Below, piece by piece: positions 724 to 54,382 of a DNA stretch of 64,000 bases. Source of the stretch: Nanobdellota archaeon (GTDB taxonomy: Archaea > Nanobdellota > Nanobdellia > Pacearchaeales > GW2011-AR1); NCBI GenBank assembly GCA_030647125.1, contig JAUSKC010000013.1:2249-66248 (forward strand), read 5' to 3'. The stretch's first letter is position 1, and each line of letters opens with the position of its first letter. The notes below the pieces were generated by a model. It was not told the DNA's origin, ran no database searches, and saw nothing but the letters and a program-made list of their open reading frames with translations. The translations under genes were made by a program, and so were the position numbers.

Positions 724-803
724 CCTCATAAAAACTTATAAATAAACTAAGTTTTTCCAAATTACAAAGGAAGTTGAATGTCAAGAAACCTTAGTGTCTT
801 ACA

Positions 804-11249: not shown

Positions 11250-12344
11250 TTATCTCCAAACCTCTATTCCAAGGTCTGAAATTTCTTTCGCAGGTGCTTT
11301 ATGACCACCGCGCATGAAGTCATCTCTATCTCTACCTAAGACATAAGGTGACTTAACACCAGTCATAATAGTTATTACTCGAACTTTACCAGCAAACTCT
11401 TTACTGATTCTTGCTCCAATAATAACGTTAGCATCAGAGCTCAAACTTTCCGAAACAGTTCTACCAATAATGTCAAACTCTTCCAATTTCAAATCAGGTC
11501 CGCAAGTTATATGAATCAATGCTCCAGTCGCACCCTTATAATCCACGTCAAGTAGAGGATGTGTAAGTGCCTGTTTTACTGCTTCATCAACTTTATTAGA
11601 ACTTGAATCACTTTCACCAATGCCAATAACTGCAACTCCACCGTCTTTCATGATTGCAGAAACATCTGCGTAATCAAGATTAATCAACGAAGGCAATGTA
11701 ATCGTCTCAACAATACCTTTAATCATCGTCGAAACCAACTCGTTAGCAACAGCAAAAGCTTGTTCAATTGGCAATTGTCCAGCAATATCAACTAATCTAT
11801 TATTATCCAAAACAATACATGTGTCTGTAACTTCCCTTAATTCTTGAAGACCAAATTCAGCTTTGTCTATTCTAGCTTTTTCAGCTTCGAAAGGCATAGT
11901 CACAACACCAATAACAACAGCTCCTGTTTCTTTTGCAATTTGAGCTACAACCGGTGCACTTCCTGTACCAGTTCCGCCACCCATTCCTGCAAGAACGAAA
12001 ACCATATCAGCGCCGCCAACAGCTTTTTTTATTTCAACCAATGCTTCTTTAGCTGCTTCTCTTCCTTTTTGAGGAACACCACCAGCTCCTAAACCTCTTG
12101 TGAGTTCTTTACCGATAAGAATTTTATCGTCGGCTTTTGAAACACTCAAGTGCAAAGCATCAGTATTAGCTGCGTAAACAGTAGCTCCTTGAACTCCTTT
12201 ATTAAAAAGCCAAGTAGTCATGTTACATCCGCAACCACCGCAACCAACAACTTTAATGTTAGCTTTACCAGCTCTTAACTCGTCAAAGTTAATGCTGTGC
12301 GTAGCGCTATTTTGAACCGCTTCTTTTGCAAAATCTAATACCAT
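11250..12344 (-). CDS. ftsZ: cell division GTPase FtsZ
   Basis: Tubulin signature GGGTGTGSAPVVA, GCGGCG N-terminal loop, full-length 364 aa; AGGAGG RBS upstream. Confidence 0.95.
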   Translation of the reverse strand: MVLDFAKEAVQNSATHSINFDELRAGKANIKVVGCGGCGCNMTTWLFNKGVQGATVYAANTDALHLSVSKADDKILIGKELTRGLGAGGVPQKGREAAKEALVEIKKAVGGADMVFVLAGMGGGTGTGSAPVVAQIAKETGAVVIGVVTMPFEAEKARIDKAEFGLQELREVTDTCIVLDNNRLVDIAGQLPIEQAFAVANELVSTMIKGIVETITLPSLINLDYADVSAIMKDGGVAVIGIGESDSSSNKVDEAVKQALTHPLLDVDYKGATGALIHITCGPDLKLEEFDIIGRTVSESLSSDANVIIGARISKEFAGKVRVITIMTGVKSPYVLGRDRDDFMRGGHKAPAKEISDLGIEVWR

Positions 12345-13986: not shown

Positions 13987-14162
13987 AAACCTCGAGTCCT
14001 TAAAAGGTTTATGAATAACAAGGGTTAGGATGGATTATTTCTATTAAAAATATTATAACGATTCCAAAAAGAGGTGATAATTATCGTTGAGGTGAGTGGA
14101 TAGGAGAATTAATAAAAAGTTAAAAGGAATAACCTTAAAAAAGAAAATTTACTAAAACAAAA

Positions 14163-26607: not shown

Positions 26608-26807
26608 TTGCAAAAACCAAAAATCTAAACTTTTTAATGTTTGAGGTTTAAGATATTAATAAAATAAACTTGGTCTTTGTAAATATTATCTTTAATAAAA
26701 AAAGAGGTGATAATTATCATTGGGATGAATAATTGGGGAGTGGAAGGGGGGATAAGTAAAACAAAATTATTCACATAATTTTTATACCCATATTTCTTCA
26801 TTAATAA

Positions 26808-27665
26808 ATGGCCTTGAAAAAACATCACAAAATTCTTATTGGAAGTTTCACAACAATTGTAATTATCTTTATGATCGCTTCCGGAATTTTAATTTACATG
26901 CTTTACTCTGACTTAAACATTAAATATAATGAAATAAATCAGAATATTGAATCTTACCAATTATTAACAACATCCCAAATAAATGAGCTTACAAAAAATA
27001 TTCAGCAAACCCAGTTATCTGTCTCATCTATAAATCAAACTTTTAACAATCAAATTGATTTGTTAAGGGCCTCTACAAGTTCCGACTTTTCAAAAATAAT
27101 TGGAGAGGCAGTTAAATCAGTTGTAACAGTAAGAACAGACGTCGCTCAAGCGACAGGATTTATAATTGATGAAAGTGGCTATGTAGTTACAAATGCGCAC
27201 GTTCTCTCGGGAGGCCATCAACTAATGACTATTGACTACAATCAGCAAGAAAGAACCACAAGATTAATTGGTTACGATAAAGATTTGGACATTGCTTTGC
27301 TTAAACTTCCAAAAGGAGATTATGATTACTTAACTCTCGCCGATTCTGATCAAGTGGAAGTTGGACAAAAAGTTATTGCAATAGGAAATCCTTTGGGCTT
27401 GCAATTCTCTGTTTCAGAAGGAATTGTCTCAGCAGTAAATAGACAAGGTAGCAATGCCTTAGATGCATACATACAAACCGATGCCGCATTAAATCCTGGA
27501 AATTCAGGCGGTCCGCTAATTGACTCAAACGGTGAAGTCATAGGAATCAACAATTTTAAAATATCATCAGGAGAATCATTAGGTTTTTCATTAGAATCAA
27601 ACTACATAAAAGAAGCAGTAAATCGAATAGCGCAGCAACAATTAAATCAAACTTTAATTAACTAA
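26808..27665 (+). CDS. membrane-anchored trypsin-like (S1C/HtrA-type) serine protease
   Basis: N-terminal TM; catalytic triad contexts TNAHVL, DIALLKL, GNSGGPL. Confidence 0.8.
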   Translation: MALKKHHKILIGSFTTIVIIFMIASGILIYMLYSDLNIKYNEINQNIESYQLLTTSQINELTKNIQQTQLSVSSINQTFNNQIDLLRASTSSDFSKIIGEAVKSVVTVRTDVAQATGFIIDESGYVVTNAHVLSGGHQLMTIDYNQQERTTRLIGYDKDLDIALLKLPKGDYDYLTLADSDQVEVGQKVIAIGNPLGLQFSVSEGIVSAVNRQGSNALDAYIQTDAALNPGNSGGPLIDSNGEVIGINNFKISSGESLGFSLESNYIKEAVNRIAQQQLNQTLIN

Positions 27666-37630: not shown

Positions 37631-37760
37631 ATAATTCTTTTGAAAGTTGACAATTAATAAACATCAGCAATCAAACGAAAAAGAGGTGATAAAATACATT
37701 AGGAGGACTAAATTACAACCAAGACATTATTTTTATAAACTAAATACTCATTTCTAAATT

Positions 37761-43668: not shown

Positions 43669-43769
43669 ACAACATTGAAAATGTTTTTGTCATCATAACA
43701 AGCTTTAAAACATCAAAGATGTTTTCGTCATCAGGAAAGCTTTATAATTATTCTATATCTTCCTAATTT

Positions 43770-45597: not shown

Positions 45598-45750
45598 CCT
45601 CAAACCTTTAAAACAACTTGTTTGTTTTCGTCTTCCTTATTTCCTTAAAACAATTTATTGTTTTCGTCAGTCAGGAAACCTTTAAAACAACTTGTTTGTT
45701 TTCGTCATCCAGAAAACCTTTTAAATATTGTTTCTCGTTTCATTTGTTAT
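45598..45750. repeat. four tandem ~37-nt units (two exact 31-nt copies) each with an AT-rich 7-bp inverted repeat, upstream of tRNA(CAT)
   Basis: AAACCTTTAAAACAACTTGTTTGTTTTCGTC at 45602..45632 and 45676..45706, degenerate copies between and after; hairpin AAAACAA-cttgt-TTGTTTT. Confidence 0.7.
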
Positions 45751-45799
45751 GGCTCTGTAGCTCAGAGGAAAACCCTCGTTCGCTACATCGCTAAACAAT

Positions 45800-45871
45800 G
45801 GCTCTGTAGCTCAGCGGTAGAGCGCGGCTCTCATAAGGCCGAGGCCGGGAGGTCAGCACTCCTCAGAGCCA
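45800..45871 (+). tRNA. tRNA(CAT) (Met or Ile2) with non-canonical T-loop
   Basis: Acceptor GGCTCTG/CAGAGCC, D-arm GCTCAGCGGTAGAGC, anticodon stem CGGCT/GGCCG with loop CTCATAA; T-loop reads GTCAGCA rather than TTCRANT. Confidence 0.6.
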
Positions 45872-46273
45872 TTATTTATTAACAAAAATCCTAAACCCAT
45901 CATCTTCCTTCCTCGGCAAGATATGAAAATGCACATGATTAACTTCTTGTCCACCTGCCTTAAAATTATTAGAAACAACATTAAAACCTTCACATTTCAA
46001 TTCCTTACCAAGTTTAGCGTAAGTATTCTTAACACAATCAATTAATTCTGTTCCTAACGACGACGGCATATCAAGAACATTTTTAAAATGCTTTTTTGAA
46101 ATAACTAAAGAATGGCCCTCCACCTTTGGATGAGCATCTTTTATCGAAAAGAAATTTTCATTTTCATAAATTCGTGGAACACGAACTTCACCAAAAGCAA
46201 TCTTACAAAATATACAATCATCCATAAAAAACAAAGAAACTAGAAATATAAAAACCTTATCATAAAAAACCAC
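45872..46273 (-). CDS. HIT-family hydrolase
   Basis: Histidine triad NHVHFHILPR. Confidence 0.8.
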   Translation of the reverse strand: MVFYDKVFIFLVSLFFMDDCIFCKIAFGEVRVPRIYENENFFSIKDAHPKVEGHSLVISKKHFKNVLDMPSSLGTELIDCVKNTYAKLGKELKCEGFNVVSNNFKAGGQEVNHVHFHILPRKEDDGFRIFVNK

Positions 46274-49523: not shown

Positions 49524-49668
49524 ATTTATGATTTTCCTAAATCCAACTCTTATTTAAAGATATTGATGAACTTAATAGAAACATTTTAAATAGATATTTT
49601 TAATTGATATTCTATGCCCTGATTCGGCCAAGCATGGACGAAGCAGGGTGAACGAATGAAATTCGTAA

Positions 49669-51851: not shown

Positions 51852-52784
51852 ATGGCCTTCGTCAAAAAATGTCCTGAATGTGGAAGCATAAATTTAACAC
51901 ACGATTCTCATTTGGGAGAAATTGTCTGTAACGATTGTGGTTTTGTCGTCGAAGATCAAATGGTTGACACAGGTATTGACTTATCTGGAAAATTTGATAA
52001 ATCCGAGAAAAAAGGCCGTTCAGGAGCCCCAATTTCTATGCAAAAATTTGACAAGGGACTGACAACCAATGTCGGAGAAATTTCAGACATTTATCGTTTG
52101 GAACCAGGCCAAACAAGAAAATTCTTGCGTCTTAAGAAATGGCAAGAACGTGTCTCAACTTCTATTGAAAGAAATCTTCGTCTTGCAATGGCTGAATTAA
52201 GAGTCATCGCTTCTTATCTAAACTTACCTAATGTTGTGCGAGACGAAGCAGCAAGAATTTATAATTATGTTCTTCAAAGAGGGCTTGTCCGAGGACGTTC
52301 TATGGAATCAGTAATTGCAGCTTGCTTGTACGCTGCCTGCCGTTCTTATAACATCCCAAGAACTTTGGATGAAATGGCAACTGCATCCGACGTCGAAAGA
52401 AAAGAAATAGGCCGAACTTACAGATTTATAATAAGAAAATTAGGGATAACTGTAAAACAATCCTCTCCAAAGGACTACATCTCACGTTTTTCATCTGTCC
52501 TTAAACTTTCTCCAAAAACACAAAACGATGCATTAAAGGTCTTGAGGGACGCTGAAGAAGTTGAACTTACTTCAGGACGTGGCCCTGCAGGAATAGCAGC
52601 TGCAGCTTTATACGTTGCTGCATTAATGAACGATGAAAAGAAAACACAAAGAGAAGTTGCCGACATTGCAGGAATAACTGAAGTTACAATTCGTAACAGA
52701 TACAAAGAATTAATTGAGCGCTTAAAACTTGAAGATAAAATAAAGCAAAAAGAACGCGAGTTAGAAACAAAGAAAAAGAAATAA
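51852..52784 (+). CDS. tfb: transcription initiation factor TFB (TFIIB)
   Basis: N-terminal Zn ribbon CPECGS...CNDCG, two cyclin-fold repeats. Confidence 0.9.
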   Translation: MAFVKKCPECGSINLTHDSHLGEIVCNDCGFVVEDQMVDTGIDLSGKFDKSEKKGRSGAPISMQKFDKGLTTNVGEISDIYRLEPGQTRKFLRLKKWQERVSTSIERNLRLAMAELRVIASYLNLPNVVRDEAARIYNYVLQRGLVRGRSMESVIAACLYAACRSYNIPRTLDEMATASDVERKEIGRTYRFIIRKLGITVKQSSPKDYISRFSSVLKLSPKTQNDALKVLRDAEEVELTSGRGPAGIAAAALYVAALMNDEKKTQREVADIAGITEVTIRNRYKELIERLKLEDKIKQKERELETKKKK

Positions 52785-52827
52785 CACTAAGTTTTTATAC
52801 TTCTTAAAAGAATTAAATTTAATCTTT

Positions 52828-52907
52828 GCGGCATTCAACGGAGGCAATTAAAAAATGCCGCTGAACAGTGCTTTGAGGAAGTTCGAAAGAAACCAGTGGG
52901 TGTCTTT
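52828..52907 (+). repeat. conserved hairpin-containing element, copy A
   Basis: Hairpin GCGGCATT-(caacggaggcaattaaaa)-AATGCCGC, then ...CAGTGCTTTGAGGAAGTTCGAAAGAAACCAGTGGGTGTCTTT; 42/44-nt identical to copy B. Confidence 0.6.
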
Positions 52908-52910
52908 CAT

Positions 52911-52994
52911 GCGGGTGTGCCGGAGCGGTCAAACGGGCTGGATTTAGGCTCCAGTAGCTTAGTGCTTGCGCAGGTTCGATTCCTGTCATCCGCA
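52911..52994 (+). tRNA. tRNA-Leu(TAG)
   Basis: 84 nt with long variable arm; acceptor GCGGGTG/CATCCGC, anticodon stem CTGGA/TCCAG, loop TTTAGGC, T-loop TTCGATT. Confidence 0.8.
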
Positions 52995-53059
52995 CTTGTT
53001 TTAACTAATTAATGACTACAGTAATAAACTTTATAAATAAAGAATGAGATAGAAAACAA

Positions 53060-54382
53060 ATGATATTCAAAAGAAAAACCAAAACAAGAAATTATTTTTT
53101 CCCAAAAAAAATGAGTGGCATAAAAAAAGCAGCTATAGGGGCATTGGCTCTTGGAGCAACAGGATTAGGATTATGGATTTATAGTATAAATTCAGATTTC
53201 GAAAAACATTTCGGAAACCATCAAAGCATACAAAGAATAGATTACTCTTCACAAATTCCCTCTTCTCTTAAAGGATTAAATTTTCCTCAAAAATACGACG
53301 CATTAACTTCACACTCACAAGAAAAAACAACATCACACTCTCTTGAACAAAAAGTTGCACTAGCAAAACCAACTCCAACTTATACTCCAATACCAGAGCC
53401 AACAACAACGCCTAAGACAGAACCAACTCTTAAATATATTATATTAAAAACAGCAAATAAAAGCCTTACATCACCTTCAATACCTCCAGTAGTTTTACCG
53501 ACGCCAAAACCGACAGTAACTCCTACTCCAACACCAATGGCAACTCCTATTCCAACTTATACTCCCACTCCTAGAGCTACACCAACGCCAAGTCTTACAC
53601 CAATTCCAACACCAACGCCAACACCTATTCCTTCAAAAGAAAAAACAAATGGGCCTTCAATTTACACAGTTGCCCTAGCAAATATTGCAGCGGTAAAGGA
53701 ATTAGCACAAAGAGGAAATGAAAGAGTAAAAGAAACATTCTCTTATCTAGGAAAAAAACTAAAAGAAACAGAAGATAACAGGTATAACATAAACAGAAAA
53801 GACATAAGATTATCTACTGAAACAACAAATAGTGTTATTGTAGGAGAACCTAACAGAGTAATGGGAACTCCTTATTTCTATCAATCTATAGGAGAAAATG
53901 GAGTTTCAGTCAATGGAAAGAAAGTTGAAAAAGGATTAGAATTTTTAGCAAGAGAATATGATGAAAATCTTGAAATAATTAGAAATGGGAAAGATATTGA
54001 CTTTGATAGTCCAAGGAAACTTGTTTACGTTCCAATATCAAAAGATGAAAAGGGAATTTGGCATGTCGATTATGACTCTCAATTAGAAGAACATGATATT
54101 TATACTGCAAGACCAATAACTGATAAAGATGTAAAAGATTTTATAGTAATTCCAAAACACGAAAATGATTTGTTAACAGATAAAGATGCAAAGCCAAAAG
54201 AAAAATCATTTTATCTATTTGCAAACGGAACAAGAATTAGCATTCCTGAAATAAAAAGCCCGTCGGGAAATGATTACATCCCACAACATATCTTAATTCC
54301 TAAACCTGCAAAAGAGGTCTATCAGCCAGCAACAGGAAAAATAGGAAAAAGAGGAAATGTCTACATTCCTGTATTACAATAA
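53060..54382 (+). CDS. membrane-anchored secreted protein with Pro/Thr-rich linker
   Basis: N-terminal TM (AAIGALALGATGLGLWIY), ~90-aa PT linker (PTPTYTPIPEPTTTPKTEPT...), ~250-aa C-terminal globular region. Confidence 0.5.
   Translation: MIFKRKTKTRNYFFPKKMSGIKKAAIGALALGATGLGLWIYSINSDFEKHFGNHQSIQRIDYSSQIPSSLKGLNFPQKYDALTSHSQEKTTSHSLEQKVALAKPTPTYTPIPEPTTTPKTEPTLKYIILKTANKSLTSPSIPPVVLPTPKPTVTPTPTPMATPIPTYTPTPRATPTPSLTPIPTPTPTPIPSKEKTNGPSIYTVALANIAAVKELAQRGNERVKETFSYLGKKLKETEDNRYNINRKDIRLSTETTNSVIVGEPNRVMGTPYFYQSIGENGVSVNGKKVEKGLEFLAREYDENLEIIRNGKDIDFDSPRKLVYVPISKDEKGIWHVDYDSQLEEHDIYTARPITDKDVKDFIVIPKHENDLLTDKDAKPKEKSFYLFANGTRISIPEIKSPSGNDYIPQHILIPKPAKEVYQPATGKIGKRGNVYIPVLQ

Follow-up and report, generated by a model that had tools for sequence, protein, structure and literature searches.

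An apparently undescribed structured repeat of about 80 nt at gene and RNA boundaries in Pacearchaeota/Woesearchaeota-type DPANN archaea

Three copies of a structured repeat in a Nanobdellota contig

DPANN archaea have tiny, tightly packed genomes, and their non-coding RNA and mobile DNA are little understood. The sequence analyzed here, a 64,000-nt stretch of a Nanobdellota archaeon contig (hereafter the window, whose positions serve as coordinates; L-numbers are locus labels), contains three copies, A, B, and C, of a structured element, all on the + strand. Copies A and C immediately precede the genes for tRNA-Leu(UAG) and tRNA-Thr(UGU), respectively, and copy B ends 1–2 nt before the ATG (63038) of the gene for ribosomal protein S3Ae (Table 1). 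The three copies are members of an ~80-nt interspersed family in Pacearchaeota/Woesearchaeota-type DPANN that is apparently undescribed.

The original prediction had recognized three copies with preserved pairing, and all three were located here. However, it had treated copy C as a mere hairpin ~50 nt before tRNA-Thr; this is a full, diverged copy of the element, which ends 1 nt before the tRNA (63695). A 42-nt tail sequence matches only copies A and B in the window, and a looser pattern (GAGGCAATN{20,45}AGGAANNTCRAAARAAAYC) matches exactly A, B, and C, with no match expected by chance in either case. A covariance model of the family, run with filters off, likewise found only these three copies in the window. 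Copy A belongs to an 89-nt subfamily with a GGCAT-type hairpin 1, and the 5′ strand of its pseudoknot (CTGAAC, not CGTTC) is atypical for the family. In copy C, a pseudoknot was not evident in the canonical register, and the orthologue of this copy in L007 has identical idiosyncrasies.

A 5′-deleted relic of a fourth copy directly precedes the ATG (804) of an OB-fold gene. The relic was undetected by the covariance model even with filters off and is visible through synteny only: the orthologous locus L078 carries a full copy behind an aligned promoter, compared with which the window relic is missing ~46 nt (hairpin 1 and the pseudoknot strand), and the window promoter now lies directly before the purine-rich linker of the relic. 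At the tRNA-Thr gene that follows copy C, we also noted that the 3′ end of the tRNA (CCTCTGCAGGCTTTGA, 63756–63771) is repeated 57 nt downstream (63813–63828), with no element between the repeats.

Table 1. Element copies and associated features in the 64,000-nt window.
Feature	Position	Strand	Remarks
Relic of a fourth copy, 5′-deleted	767–803	+	Linker AAGGAAGTT and degenerate hairpin 2 kept
BRE/TATA-like site before copy A	52785–52802	+	CACTAAGTTTTTATACTT; PWM score 7.5
Copy A	52828–52908	+	81.4 bits, E = 1.8e-15 vs. covariance model
Copy A hairpin 1	52828–52835 / 52854–52861	+	Arms GCGGCATT / AATGCCGC
Copy A hairpin 1 loop	52836–52853	+	CAACGGAGGCAATTAAAA, containing GGAGGCAAT
Copy A purine-rich linker	52875–52884	+	GAGGAAGTTC
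Copy A hairpin 2	52885–52894 / 52899–52908	+	Loop AGTG
tRNA-Leu(UAG)	52911–52995	+	ARAGORN, Rfam tRNA; 5′ end 2 nt past copy A hairpin 2
40-codon uORF (MKNQ...AGVF*)	62915–63037	+	Reads through copy B
Copy B	62959–63036	+	102.2 bits vs. covariance model
Copy B hairpin 1	62959–62966 / 62981–62988	+	Arms GCGATTTC / GAAATCGC
Copy B pseudoknot	62989–62992 with 63022–63025	+	CGTT with AGCG
Copy B hairpin 2	63012–63021 / 63026–63035	+	
Ribosomal protein S3Ae gene	63038–63574	+	Pfam Ribosomal_S3Ae, 1.3e-17
Strong BRE/TATA-like site before copy C	63573–63590	+	AAAAACTCTTTTAAACCA; PWM score 10.1
Copy C, diverged	63619–63693	+	59.6 bits, E = 8e-11 vs. family model
Copy C hairpin 1	63619–63625 / 63643–63649	+	GAGTTTC / GAAACTC
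Copy C hairpin 2	~63672–63693	+	
tRNA-Thr(UGU)	63695–63768	+	ARAGORN, Rfam tRNA; starts 1 nt past copy C
BRE, B recognition element; PWM, position weight matrix; uORF, upstream open reading frame.

A conserved fold of two hairpins and a pseudoknot

Read 5′ to 3′, the element comprises hairpin 1 with a conserved loop (NNCGGAGGCAAUUA), a pseudoknot strand of 4–5 nt, a purine-rich linker (GAGGAAGUUC), a 10-bp hairpin 2, and a conserved A, with the consensus tGCGAUUUC-nnCGGAGGCAAUUA-GAAAUCGC-CGUUC-(variable 8–10 nt)-GAGGAAGUUC-AAAAGAAACC-AGCG-GGUKUCUUUU-A. The second stem that the original prediction had placed in the tail is real and corresponds to hairpin 2. The variable pyrimidine noted in that tail does lie in the loop of this stem; what had gone unseen is that it takes part in a pseudoknot of 4–5 bp, in which the nucleotides just 3′ of hairpin 1 pair with the hairpin 2 loop.

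Pair counts were taken from a 93-sequence alignment, in which all eight pairs of hairpin 1 show double-sided changes. A base pair of hairpin 2 that is G-C in copy A is A-U in copy B, and across the family the basal pair of this hairpin is AU in 47 sequences and GC in 31, with an inner pair that is GC in 47 and AU in 37. The pseudoknot covaries as well. GC (48 sequences), CG (11), and UA (11) all occur at one of its pairs, a second has CG in 66 sequences and UA in 6, and at a third U·G (63) stands beside U-A (11), the U·G being kept in 63 of 87 sequences. Paired cells amount to 93.2%, compared to 83.6% in shuffles, and the observed covariation was reached by none of 500 shuffles, while slid registers caused pairing to collapse to 40–65%. 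In diverged copies, the A/U-rich hairpin 2 is replaced by GCGAG...CUCGC, with the pairing kept and the ATG still abutted. On this comparative evidence, selection on structure, as first argued from covariation among the three copies, is strongly confirmed for hairpin 1, the second stem, and the pseudoknot.

Minimum free energy (MFE) folding of the + strand gave weak support (z = −1.5, −0.2, and 0.0), so the evidence for structure is comparative, not thermodynamic. The minus strand was considered as the functional strand and rejected; its MFE was better (z = −3.7 and −2.0), but the conserved U·G would become C·A there, and the + strand is therefore the folded one. All-Watson-Crick pseudoknots occur in 12 of 41 copies in antisense context, compared to 4 of 50 sense copies; however, an antisense-context enrichment for pseudoknots that could form on either strand was not evident at the key pair (p = 0.2), and most antisense copies keep the wobble. 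Given that the hairpin 2 loop is only 4–5 nt long, the pseudoknot can form only if the invariant CC/GG top of hairpin 2 opens, unless the two pairings alternate.

Two further suggestions made for these copies did not hold. A palindromic protein-binding site is at odds with arms that differ in sequence with their pairing kept, and with a U·G wobble that is specific to one strand. The GGAGG of the loop, read as a Shine-Dalgarno sequence, has no start codon at working distance, except by accident in copy A. We also considered and rejected a tRNA-like structure, given that neither ARAGORN nor the Rfam tRNA model called anything beyond the genuine tRNAs next to the element.

Family size and distribution

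The looser pattern given above was derived from copies A, B, and C only. Applied to species-representative genomes, it returned 39 loci, nearly all in metagenome-assembled genomes of Pacearchaeota, Woesearchaeota, or Nanoarchaeota. Among these matches, one in Nitrospirae is due to chance, and a contig labelled 'Gastranaerophilales', which carries an archaeal family-B DNA polymerase (PolB), is probably mis-binned. The same search returned 99 loci in metagenomes and no match in viral contigs. The window copies are thus far from the only ones; the opposite outcome, with no copies beyond these, is what the original prediction had named as speaking against it. A covariance model built from 42 copies, a search in related DPANN that had also been proposed, gave 52 good matches in the genome loci and 93 in the metagenome loci, and these 145 matches represent 123 distinct copies after the removal of duplicates. 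Genomes carry multiple copies, in some cases as head-to-tail tandem arrays, and subfamilies of 85, 88, and 89 nt are common to different genomes.

The Rfam scan that had been suggested for the element gave no match to it at or above the gathering threshold of any family: Rfam 15 reported only eight tRNAs in the window, and a permissive scan of 52780–52915 (E ≤ 10) yielded only chance-level matches (E ≥ 2, <15 bits). Full-text literature searches on DPANN repeats, ribozymes, and structured RNAs returned no description of the element.

Two readings are contradicted, and we regard them as scarcely credible, namely that the element is a small protein-coding gene (MRFHRRQLEIAVQCFEEVQKKPAGVF), or that its copies are att-type repeats left by the integration of a 10-kb 'island'. 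One frame is open in most copies, and it is often ATG-initiated at the foot of hairpin 1; however, in the 88-nt subfamily, a one-base insertion in each hairpin 1 arm keeps the pairing, shifts the frame, and creates stops, and one S3Ae orthologue uses another frame. As for integration, copies A and B do flank ~10 kb, which the original prediction had described as a bracketed island of secreted proteins. Yet the order of the 626-aa gene, the L44e-like gene, and the S3Ae gene is syntenic in several distant relatives, no integrase was found, and more than 120 copies lie elsewhere.

Placement at gene and RNA boundaries

The hairpin 2 end of the element always forms a precise junction with a gene or RNA boundary, and on the hairpin 1 side lies a non-conserved linker that varies from 0 to 23 nt. 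The largest class, with 42 copies, ends 1–4 nt before the ATG of a co-oriented gene, and another 5–6 copies end 1–3 nt before a co-oriented tRNA (Leu, Thr, Glu, or Val). Thirteen copies lie within tRNA introns at position 37/38, all antisense (tRNA-Lys-CUU in eight contigs, and tRNA-Thr, -Ser, -Leu, and -Asn). At convergent RNA genes, six copies abut a tRNA 3′ end and one abuts the 16S rRNA 3′ end. At least six different convergent protein genes are met at their stop codon, where the TTA of ...CUUUUA is the complement of the gene's TAA. Five copies lie in frame and sense inside open reading frames (ORFs), and ~13 are flanked by duplicated gene ends. None of this exact placement, nor the copies in ORFs and tRNA introns, had been noticed in the original prediction, which had also missed the uORF through copy B and the mobile-like distribution described below.

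The genes downstream of the element have housekeeping roles (S3Ae, S10, L1, L44e, SRP54, TBP, RFC, Rad50, SMC, Spt5, aCPSF1-like, and RNase HI); apart from those confirmed by Pfam, these were identified by eye. Essential genes also host the element internally. The family-B DNA polymerase carries an in-frame copy inside its exonuclease domain in L013 (4088–4172) and L006 (1833–1917), where it adds ~27 residues before the YVEYV strand; this copy is intact and high-scoring, with a predicted translation of AISSEAIGNRRSAIRGSSKETNGCLS. An RsmB/F methyltransferase in L024 has an in-frame element between its domains. In both the PolB and RsmB/F hosts, the reading frame continues without a break, and the Pfam domains extend across the insert.

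In the tRNA introns, it is a separate linker of 9–23 nt, not the element itself, that forms a helix with the exon. The intron copies are antisense, which does not agree with an archaeal intron of the bulge-helix-bulge type, in which the element would be sense and bounded by that motif. By sequence inspection, the Gins51 copies are surrounded by an 8-bp helix without bulges.

Some copies are flanked by gene-end duplications of 8–41 nt. In Gins51 (L003, L005, L018, L027, L033, and L036), the element stands between two copies of the first 11 codons; a Shine-Dalgarno sequence has been added there, and a uORF of 46 codons ends with ATGA on the real start. In FtsY (L025, L038, L033, L005, and L010), the last 12 codons are duplicated around the element, and in L025 and L038 the two duplicates differ mostly at synonymous sites. 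Next to antisense copies, the target recurs as an inverted repeat of 8 nt. Of 21 pairs of neighbouring copies, 19 share one orientation, even between divergent flanking genes. When the strand of non-adjacent genes was taken as a stand-in for the direction of replication, the orientation of the element showed no link to it (same strand in 48%). Given the gene-end duplications, the flanking inverted repeat, the co-orientation, and the exact placement at RNA boundaries, we suggest that insertion is directional and proceeds via the hairpin 2 end, through single-stranded DNA or RNA.

Transcription of the window copies

Nearly all protein genes in the window are leaderless: they lack a Shine-Dalgarno sequence, and the last A of their BRE/TATA element (aaaCTTTATAAA) is 21 nt upstream of the ATG. 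For most of the other tRNAs in the window, the position of the TATA box would give a very short 5′ leader or none. As a separate observation, tRNA-Arg(UCU) (49609–49668) has no upstream TATA box and is preceded by a GC-rich stretch with an inverted repeat (GCCCTG...CAGGGT).

Promoters were scored with a PWM trained on the promoters of 35 leaderless genes of the window (training median ~9), for which scores of at least 6 are reached at only 0.2% of window positions. Upstream of copies A and C, we noted the BRE/TATA-like sites listed in Table 1, which place the predicted transcription starts at ~52821 (7 nt before hairpin 1 of copy A) and ~63609 (10 nt before hairpin 1 of copy C). No promoter-like site was found by PWM within 80 nt of copy B, which lies inside the L44e-like/S3Ae transcription unit. 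An RNA leader, one of the possibilities first put forward, thus fits all three window copies. Copies A and C would be transcribed from their own TATA boxes as ~90-nt leaders of pre-tRNA-Leu and pre-tRNA-Thr, and RNase P-type 5′ maturation would remove these leaders and release a structured small RNA. RNase P proteins are reported to be encoded in archaeal genomes, DPANN included (PMC6380272), and ordinary 5′ maturation is therefore able to take off the leaders of A and C.

The promoters of A and C could also point to a multi-copy gene for a trans-acting small RNA, whereby copies with their own promoter make a ~90-nt RNA, with its 3′ end set by tRNA 5′ processing, and the exposed GGAGGCAAU loop acts on another RNA or on the ribosome. 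Co-transcripts of small RNAs and tRNAs are known in archaea, which counts for this possibility, as do the promoter-like sites 7–10 nt upstream and the strong conservation of the loop and linker sequences. We nonetheless consider it improbable: many copies cannot own a promoter, being inside ORFs, in tRNA introns, or directly after upstream genes; no fixed distance from promoter to hairpin 1 was found across the family; and it does not account for the way in which the 3′ end of the element exactly adjoins start and stop codons.

The same promoter scores bear on a DNA-level cassette, in which the tail would be a BRE/TATA element and hairpin 2 with its T run a terminator. The tail does place TTCAAAAG or ATCGAAAA at −29 to −22, where ordinary genes have their TATA box, and a T-rich run follows hairpin 2 on both strands. 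We rejected both halves of this reading, which is contradicted and very improbable. As a promoter, the tail scores −3.0, −0.2, and −4.7 in the three copies, compared to the median of ~9 for real promoters, and no match was found at −36 to −19. As a terminator, hairpin 2 loses its T run in diverged copies, which carry GAGCGCGAG...CUCGC instead and keep the pairing with the A/T box also lost; at filled sites, the native terminator persists downstream of the inserted element, and sense copies occur inside ORFs.

Translation through the element

The S3Ae gene has neither a TATA box at −27 (PWM score −0.2) nor a Shine-Dalgarno sequence. Copy B is instead read through by the 40-codon uORF, which starts 2 nt past the stop codon of the L44e-like gene and whose TAA is immediately followed by the S3Ae ATG. 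A uORF of this kind is present in every S3Ae orthologue examined; one uses a different frame, and the peptide is not conserved. Across the family, 28 of the 42 copies before start codons are spanned by an ORF that begins with ATG and terminates between positions −3 and +12 relative to the main ATG, with TAAATG, ATGA, and TAATG as the usual overlaps between the uORF and the main ORF. In genes such as Gins51, whose 5′ region carries the element in antisense, the linker instead provides a Shine-Dalgarno sequence for the main ATG. S3Ae would accordingly be translated by termination-reinitiation after the uORF, in an organism of otherwise leaderless genes. In our reading, uORF coupling may let a gene that lacks both a Shine-Dalgarno sequence and a leaderless start be translated.

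This arrangement resembles known cases of uORF termination-reinitiation and the hairpin in the spacer of phage T4 gene 38, in that the uORF of copy B stops on the main AUG (TAAAUG), with AUGA and UAAUG elsewhere, and in that, as in gene 38, a stable hairpin is flanked by a purine-rich stretch and the AUG. Unlike gene 38, the DPANN leader is a conserved repeat common to unrelated genes and tRNAs, and one orthologue uses another frame.

We also weighed a cis-acting RNA 'punctuation' module, in which the folded RNA self-cleaves, or guides a nuclease, 1–3 nt past hairpin 2, so that a leaderless mRNA or a tRNA would receive its 5′ end through cleavage of a longer transcript. This is attractive in several respects, as the spacing from hairpin 2 to the ATG equals that from hairpin 2 to position +1 of the tRNA (0–4 nt), genes preceded by the element lack a TATA box at −27 and a Shine-Dalgarno sequence, and diverged copies retain the fold and the ATG adjacency but not the sequence. 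Compact and pseudoknotted, and with ~25 unpaired bases conserved besides the U·G, the fold is ribozyme- or aptamer-like, and it shares its size, hairpin-plus-pseudoknot topology, conserved unpaired bases, and varied contexts with the pistol, hatchet, twister, and hepatitis delta virus (HDV)-like ribozymes. However, there is no match to any known self-cleaving class in Rfam, even at E ≤ 10, and the known classes cut internally or at the 5′ end, not 1–3 nt past a 3′ helix. Further, and again unlike ribozymes, essential ORFs (PolB and RsmB/F) contain intact sense copies, and constitutive cleavage there would destroy the mRNAs unless translation prevents folding, and ~40% of copies are antisense to the adjacent gene. 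Translation is already explained by uORFs ending on the main AUG, and the tRNA leaders need no ribozyme, given the RNase P proteins reported in DPANN (PMC6380272). Taken together, we consider such a module unlikely.

Proposed mobile origin and retention by selection

[quoted passage not shown] Judging from its distribution, the element would have spread as a small non-autonomous mobile element, like RPEs, MITEs, and repetitive extragenic palindromes (REPs); it would tolerate translation, and copies would later have been held in place by selection on the fold, which may be recognized by a mobilizing enzyme or may serve a host function.

The contexts in which the element is found (before an ATG, before a tRNA, antisense in introns, on stop codons, and inside ORFs) are mutually incompatible, which is a sign of mobility. 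In line with MITE- and RPE-like repeats in the broad sense, the element is multi-copy, dispersed, and non-coding, with filled and empty orthologous sites, and its presence or absence varies between relatives. An example of an empty site is the window gene 11250–12344, for which the orthologues in the window and L089 end in TAA followed by the native terminator hairpin; L002, L031, and L055 carry the element exactly at the TAA of that gene, with the terminator further on. Similarly, the element is carried by the L028 orthologue of the HtrA-like gene at 26808, for which the window shows an ordinary promoter. The 5′-deleted relic at 767–803 and the subfamilies common to different genomes likewise count for mobility. 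As for retention, the same sites are occupied across species (S3Ae in 7, SRP54 in 4, the tRNA-Lys intron in 8, Gins51 in 6, and FtsY in 5), with compensatory changes in hairpin 1 and the pseudoknot between orthologous copies. The element is also more conserved than its neighbour, with ~82% identity vs. ~71% in the adjacent S3Ae gene.

Several points weigh against this reading. No autonomous parent, transposase, or reverse transcriptase was found next to any copy, and ~800 kb of flanking sequence contained no split arrangement of left end, ORF, and right end. There are no terminal inverted repeats, as the ends (TGCGATTTC... and ...GGTTTCTTTTA) are not mutual inverts and each pairs internally. 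Nor is there a consistent target-site duplication: junction-anchored repeats of at least 7 nt occur in 16 of 112 copies (3.8 expected), and the flanking repeats found, of 8–41 nt, are limited to the gene-end cases. The fold is kept even where the element is antisense to the host transcript (tRNA introns and Gins51), which points to some function, and a purely selfish element would be expected to decay in place, yet orthologous copies keep the fold. Random insertion followed by selection does not explain the nucleotide-exact placement at starts, stops, tRNA ends, and the intron site. Finally, a strong upstream promoter match was seen for only 10 of the 42 copies before start codons outside the window, and the transcription starts given here are PWM predictions.

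Among known repeats, RPEs offer a close comparison in context, as they occupy intergenic DNA as well as RNA genes and, read as extra peptide loops, also stand in frame in essential protein genes (PMC10969869). Both are short, multi-copy, and structured, encode no transposase, and insert in frame (here in PolB and the RsmB/F methyltransferase); the likeness is one of features and distribution. RPEs are, however, rickettsial, ~100–150 nt long, and form a single long palindrome, whereas the DPANN element is archaeal, ~80 nt long, and forms two hairpins and a pseudoknot, with conserved loops and on one strand only. Most DPANN copies, unlike RPEs, are found not inside ORFs but precisely at a start codon, a stop codon, or a tRNA end. 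With MITEs and with REP, enterobacterial repetitive intergenic consensus (ERIC), and Correia repeats, the element shares dispersal, co-transcription with neighbours, effects on expression, tandem clusters, and differences in presence and absence. It differs from these in lacking terminal inverted repeats and regular target-site duplication, and where MITE- and REP-type repeats bind proteins through a fixed sequence, the stems of the DPANN element covary and its orthologous copies are conserved over long evolutionary distances.

The absence of inverted repeats and target duplications directs attention to strand-specific single-stranded-DNA elements, such as palindrome-associated transposable elements (PATEs) of the IS200/IS605 type or REP-like elements moved by an HUH transposase, or to a host single-stranded-DNA signal. 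Under this explanation, the hairpins and the 'pseudoknot' would form in DNA and not in RNA. The DPANN element, like IS200/IS605 PATEs and REPs with their REP-associated tyrosine transposases (RAYTs), has a subterminal hairpin at each end, on one strand, without inverted terminal repeats or regular target duplication; the fold is kept on one strand irrespective of the orientation of the host gene, neighbouring copies are co-oriented as noted above, and new copies insert at the 3′ end of old ones. On the other hand, no conserved target tetranucleotide was found at the left flank (only a loose YTWT preference), no TnpA/TnpB-like partner or long parent was seen in the ~800 kb of flanks, and the orientation is unrelated to that of non-adjacent genes. 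The DPANN element also differs from IS608 in its conserved hairpin loops and long-range pairing, and we know of no counterpart, in the guide/cleavage-site scheme of IS608, to the pairing between the nucleotides after hairpin 1 and the hairpin 2 loop. A single-stranded-DNA element is, in our view, a poor prospect.

A further mechanism, which we put forward as doubtful, is an RNA-borne mobile element, an archaeal analogue of short interspersed nuclear elements (SINEs). The + strand RNA would be recognized by a reverse transcriptase or an RNA-joining enzyme and copied back, after its 3′ end at hairpin 2 had, on the same slender footing, been joined to natural RNA or transcription termini. Such termini could conceivably include position +1 of leaderless mRNAs and tRNAs, the 3′ ends of tRNAs and 16S rRNA, the ends of spliced tRNA 5′ exons, and stop-proximal ends. 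If true, this mechanism would explain the exact hairpin 2 junction, the ragged hairpin 1 side with its extra linker bases, the gene-end duplications of 8–41 nt, and the 5′-truncated relics.

Returning to a mobile origin with retention of the fold, the element would, if mobile, be an archaeal counterpart of the in-frame repeats of Rickettsia, and would show how organisms with leaderless genes cope with insertions at promoters and starts by uORF coupling. If it instead has a host function (5′-end formation, ribosome loading, or a single-stranded-DNA signal), this would amount to a new regulatory principle for the lineage. In either case, an element that is well supported as structured (more than 120 copies, a pseudoknot, and heavy covariation) and has no entry in Rfam is placed with single-nucleotide precision at start and stop codons, tRNA ends, and splice sites and is tolerated inside an essential DNA polymerase gene, and it provides a ready-made marker and a defined experimental target.

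Other features of the window

Between copies A and B, a 440-aa protein without a Pfam hit contains a Pro/Thr-rich repeat with a 12-nt period (53360–53631). A close relative (L090, 4352–10132) has ~5.8 kb of extra sequence between the tRNA-Val region and the L44e-like gene, corresponding to 62420–62639 in the window.

At 45751–45872, the first 15–18 nt of tRNA-Met (GGCTCTGTAGCTCAG) occur twice, with a 31-nt insert (AAAACCCTCGTTCGCTACATCGCTAAACAA) between them; the first copy is partial, and the canonical promoter lies before it. In L007, tRNA-Thr is broken after GCTCAG by a related insert (CCCCGTTCGCTATG). One possible identity of the tRNA-Met insert is a second small insertion element; another is an unusual intron. 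Upstream of tRNA-Met, a separate repeat family (AACCTTTAAAACAACTTGTTTGTTTTCGTCATCC...) is present at 43700–43759, 45603–45662, and 45677–45736, two of these being in tandem. Finally, a motif (AAAAAGAGGTGATAATTATC) with a Shine-Dalgarno-like GAGGTGAT is found in three intergenic copies, at 14048–14099, 26681–26732, and 37678–37711.

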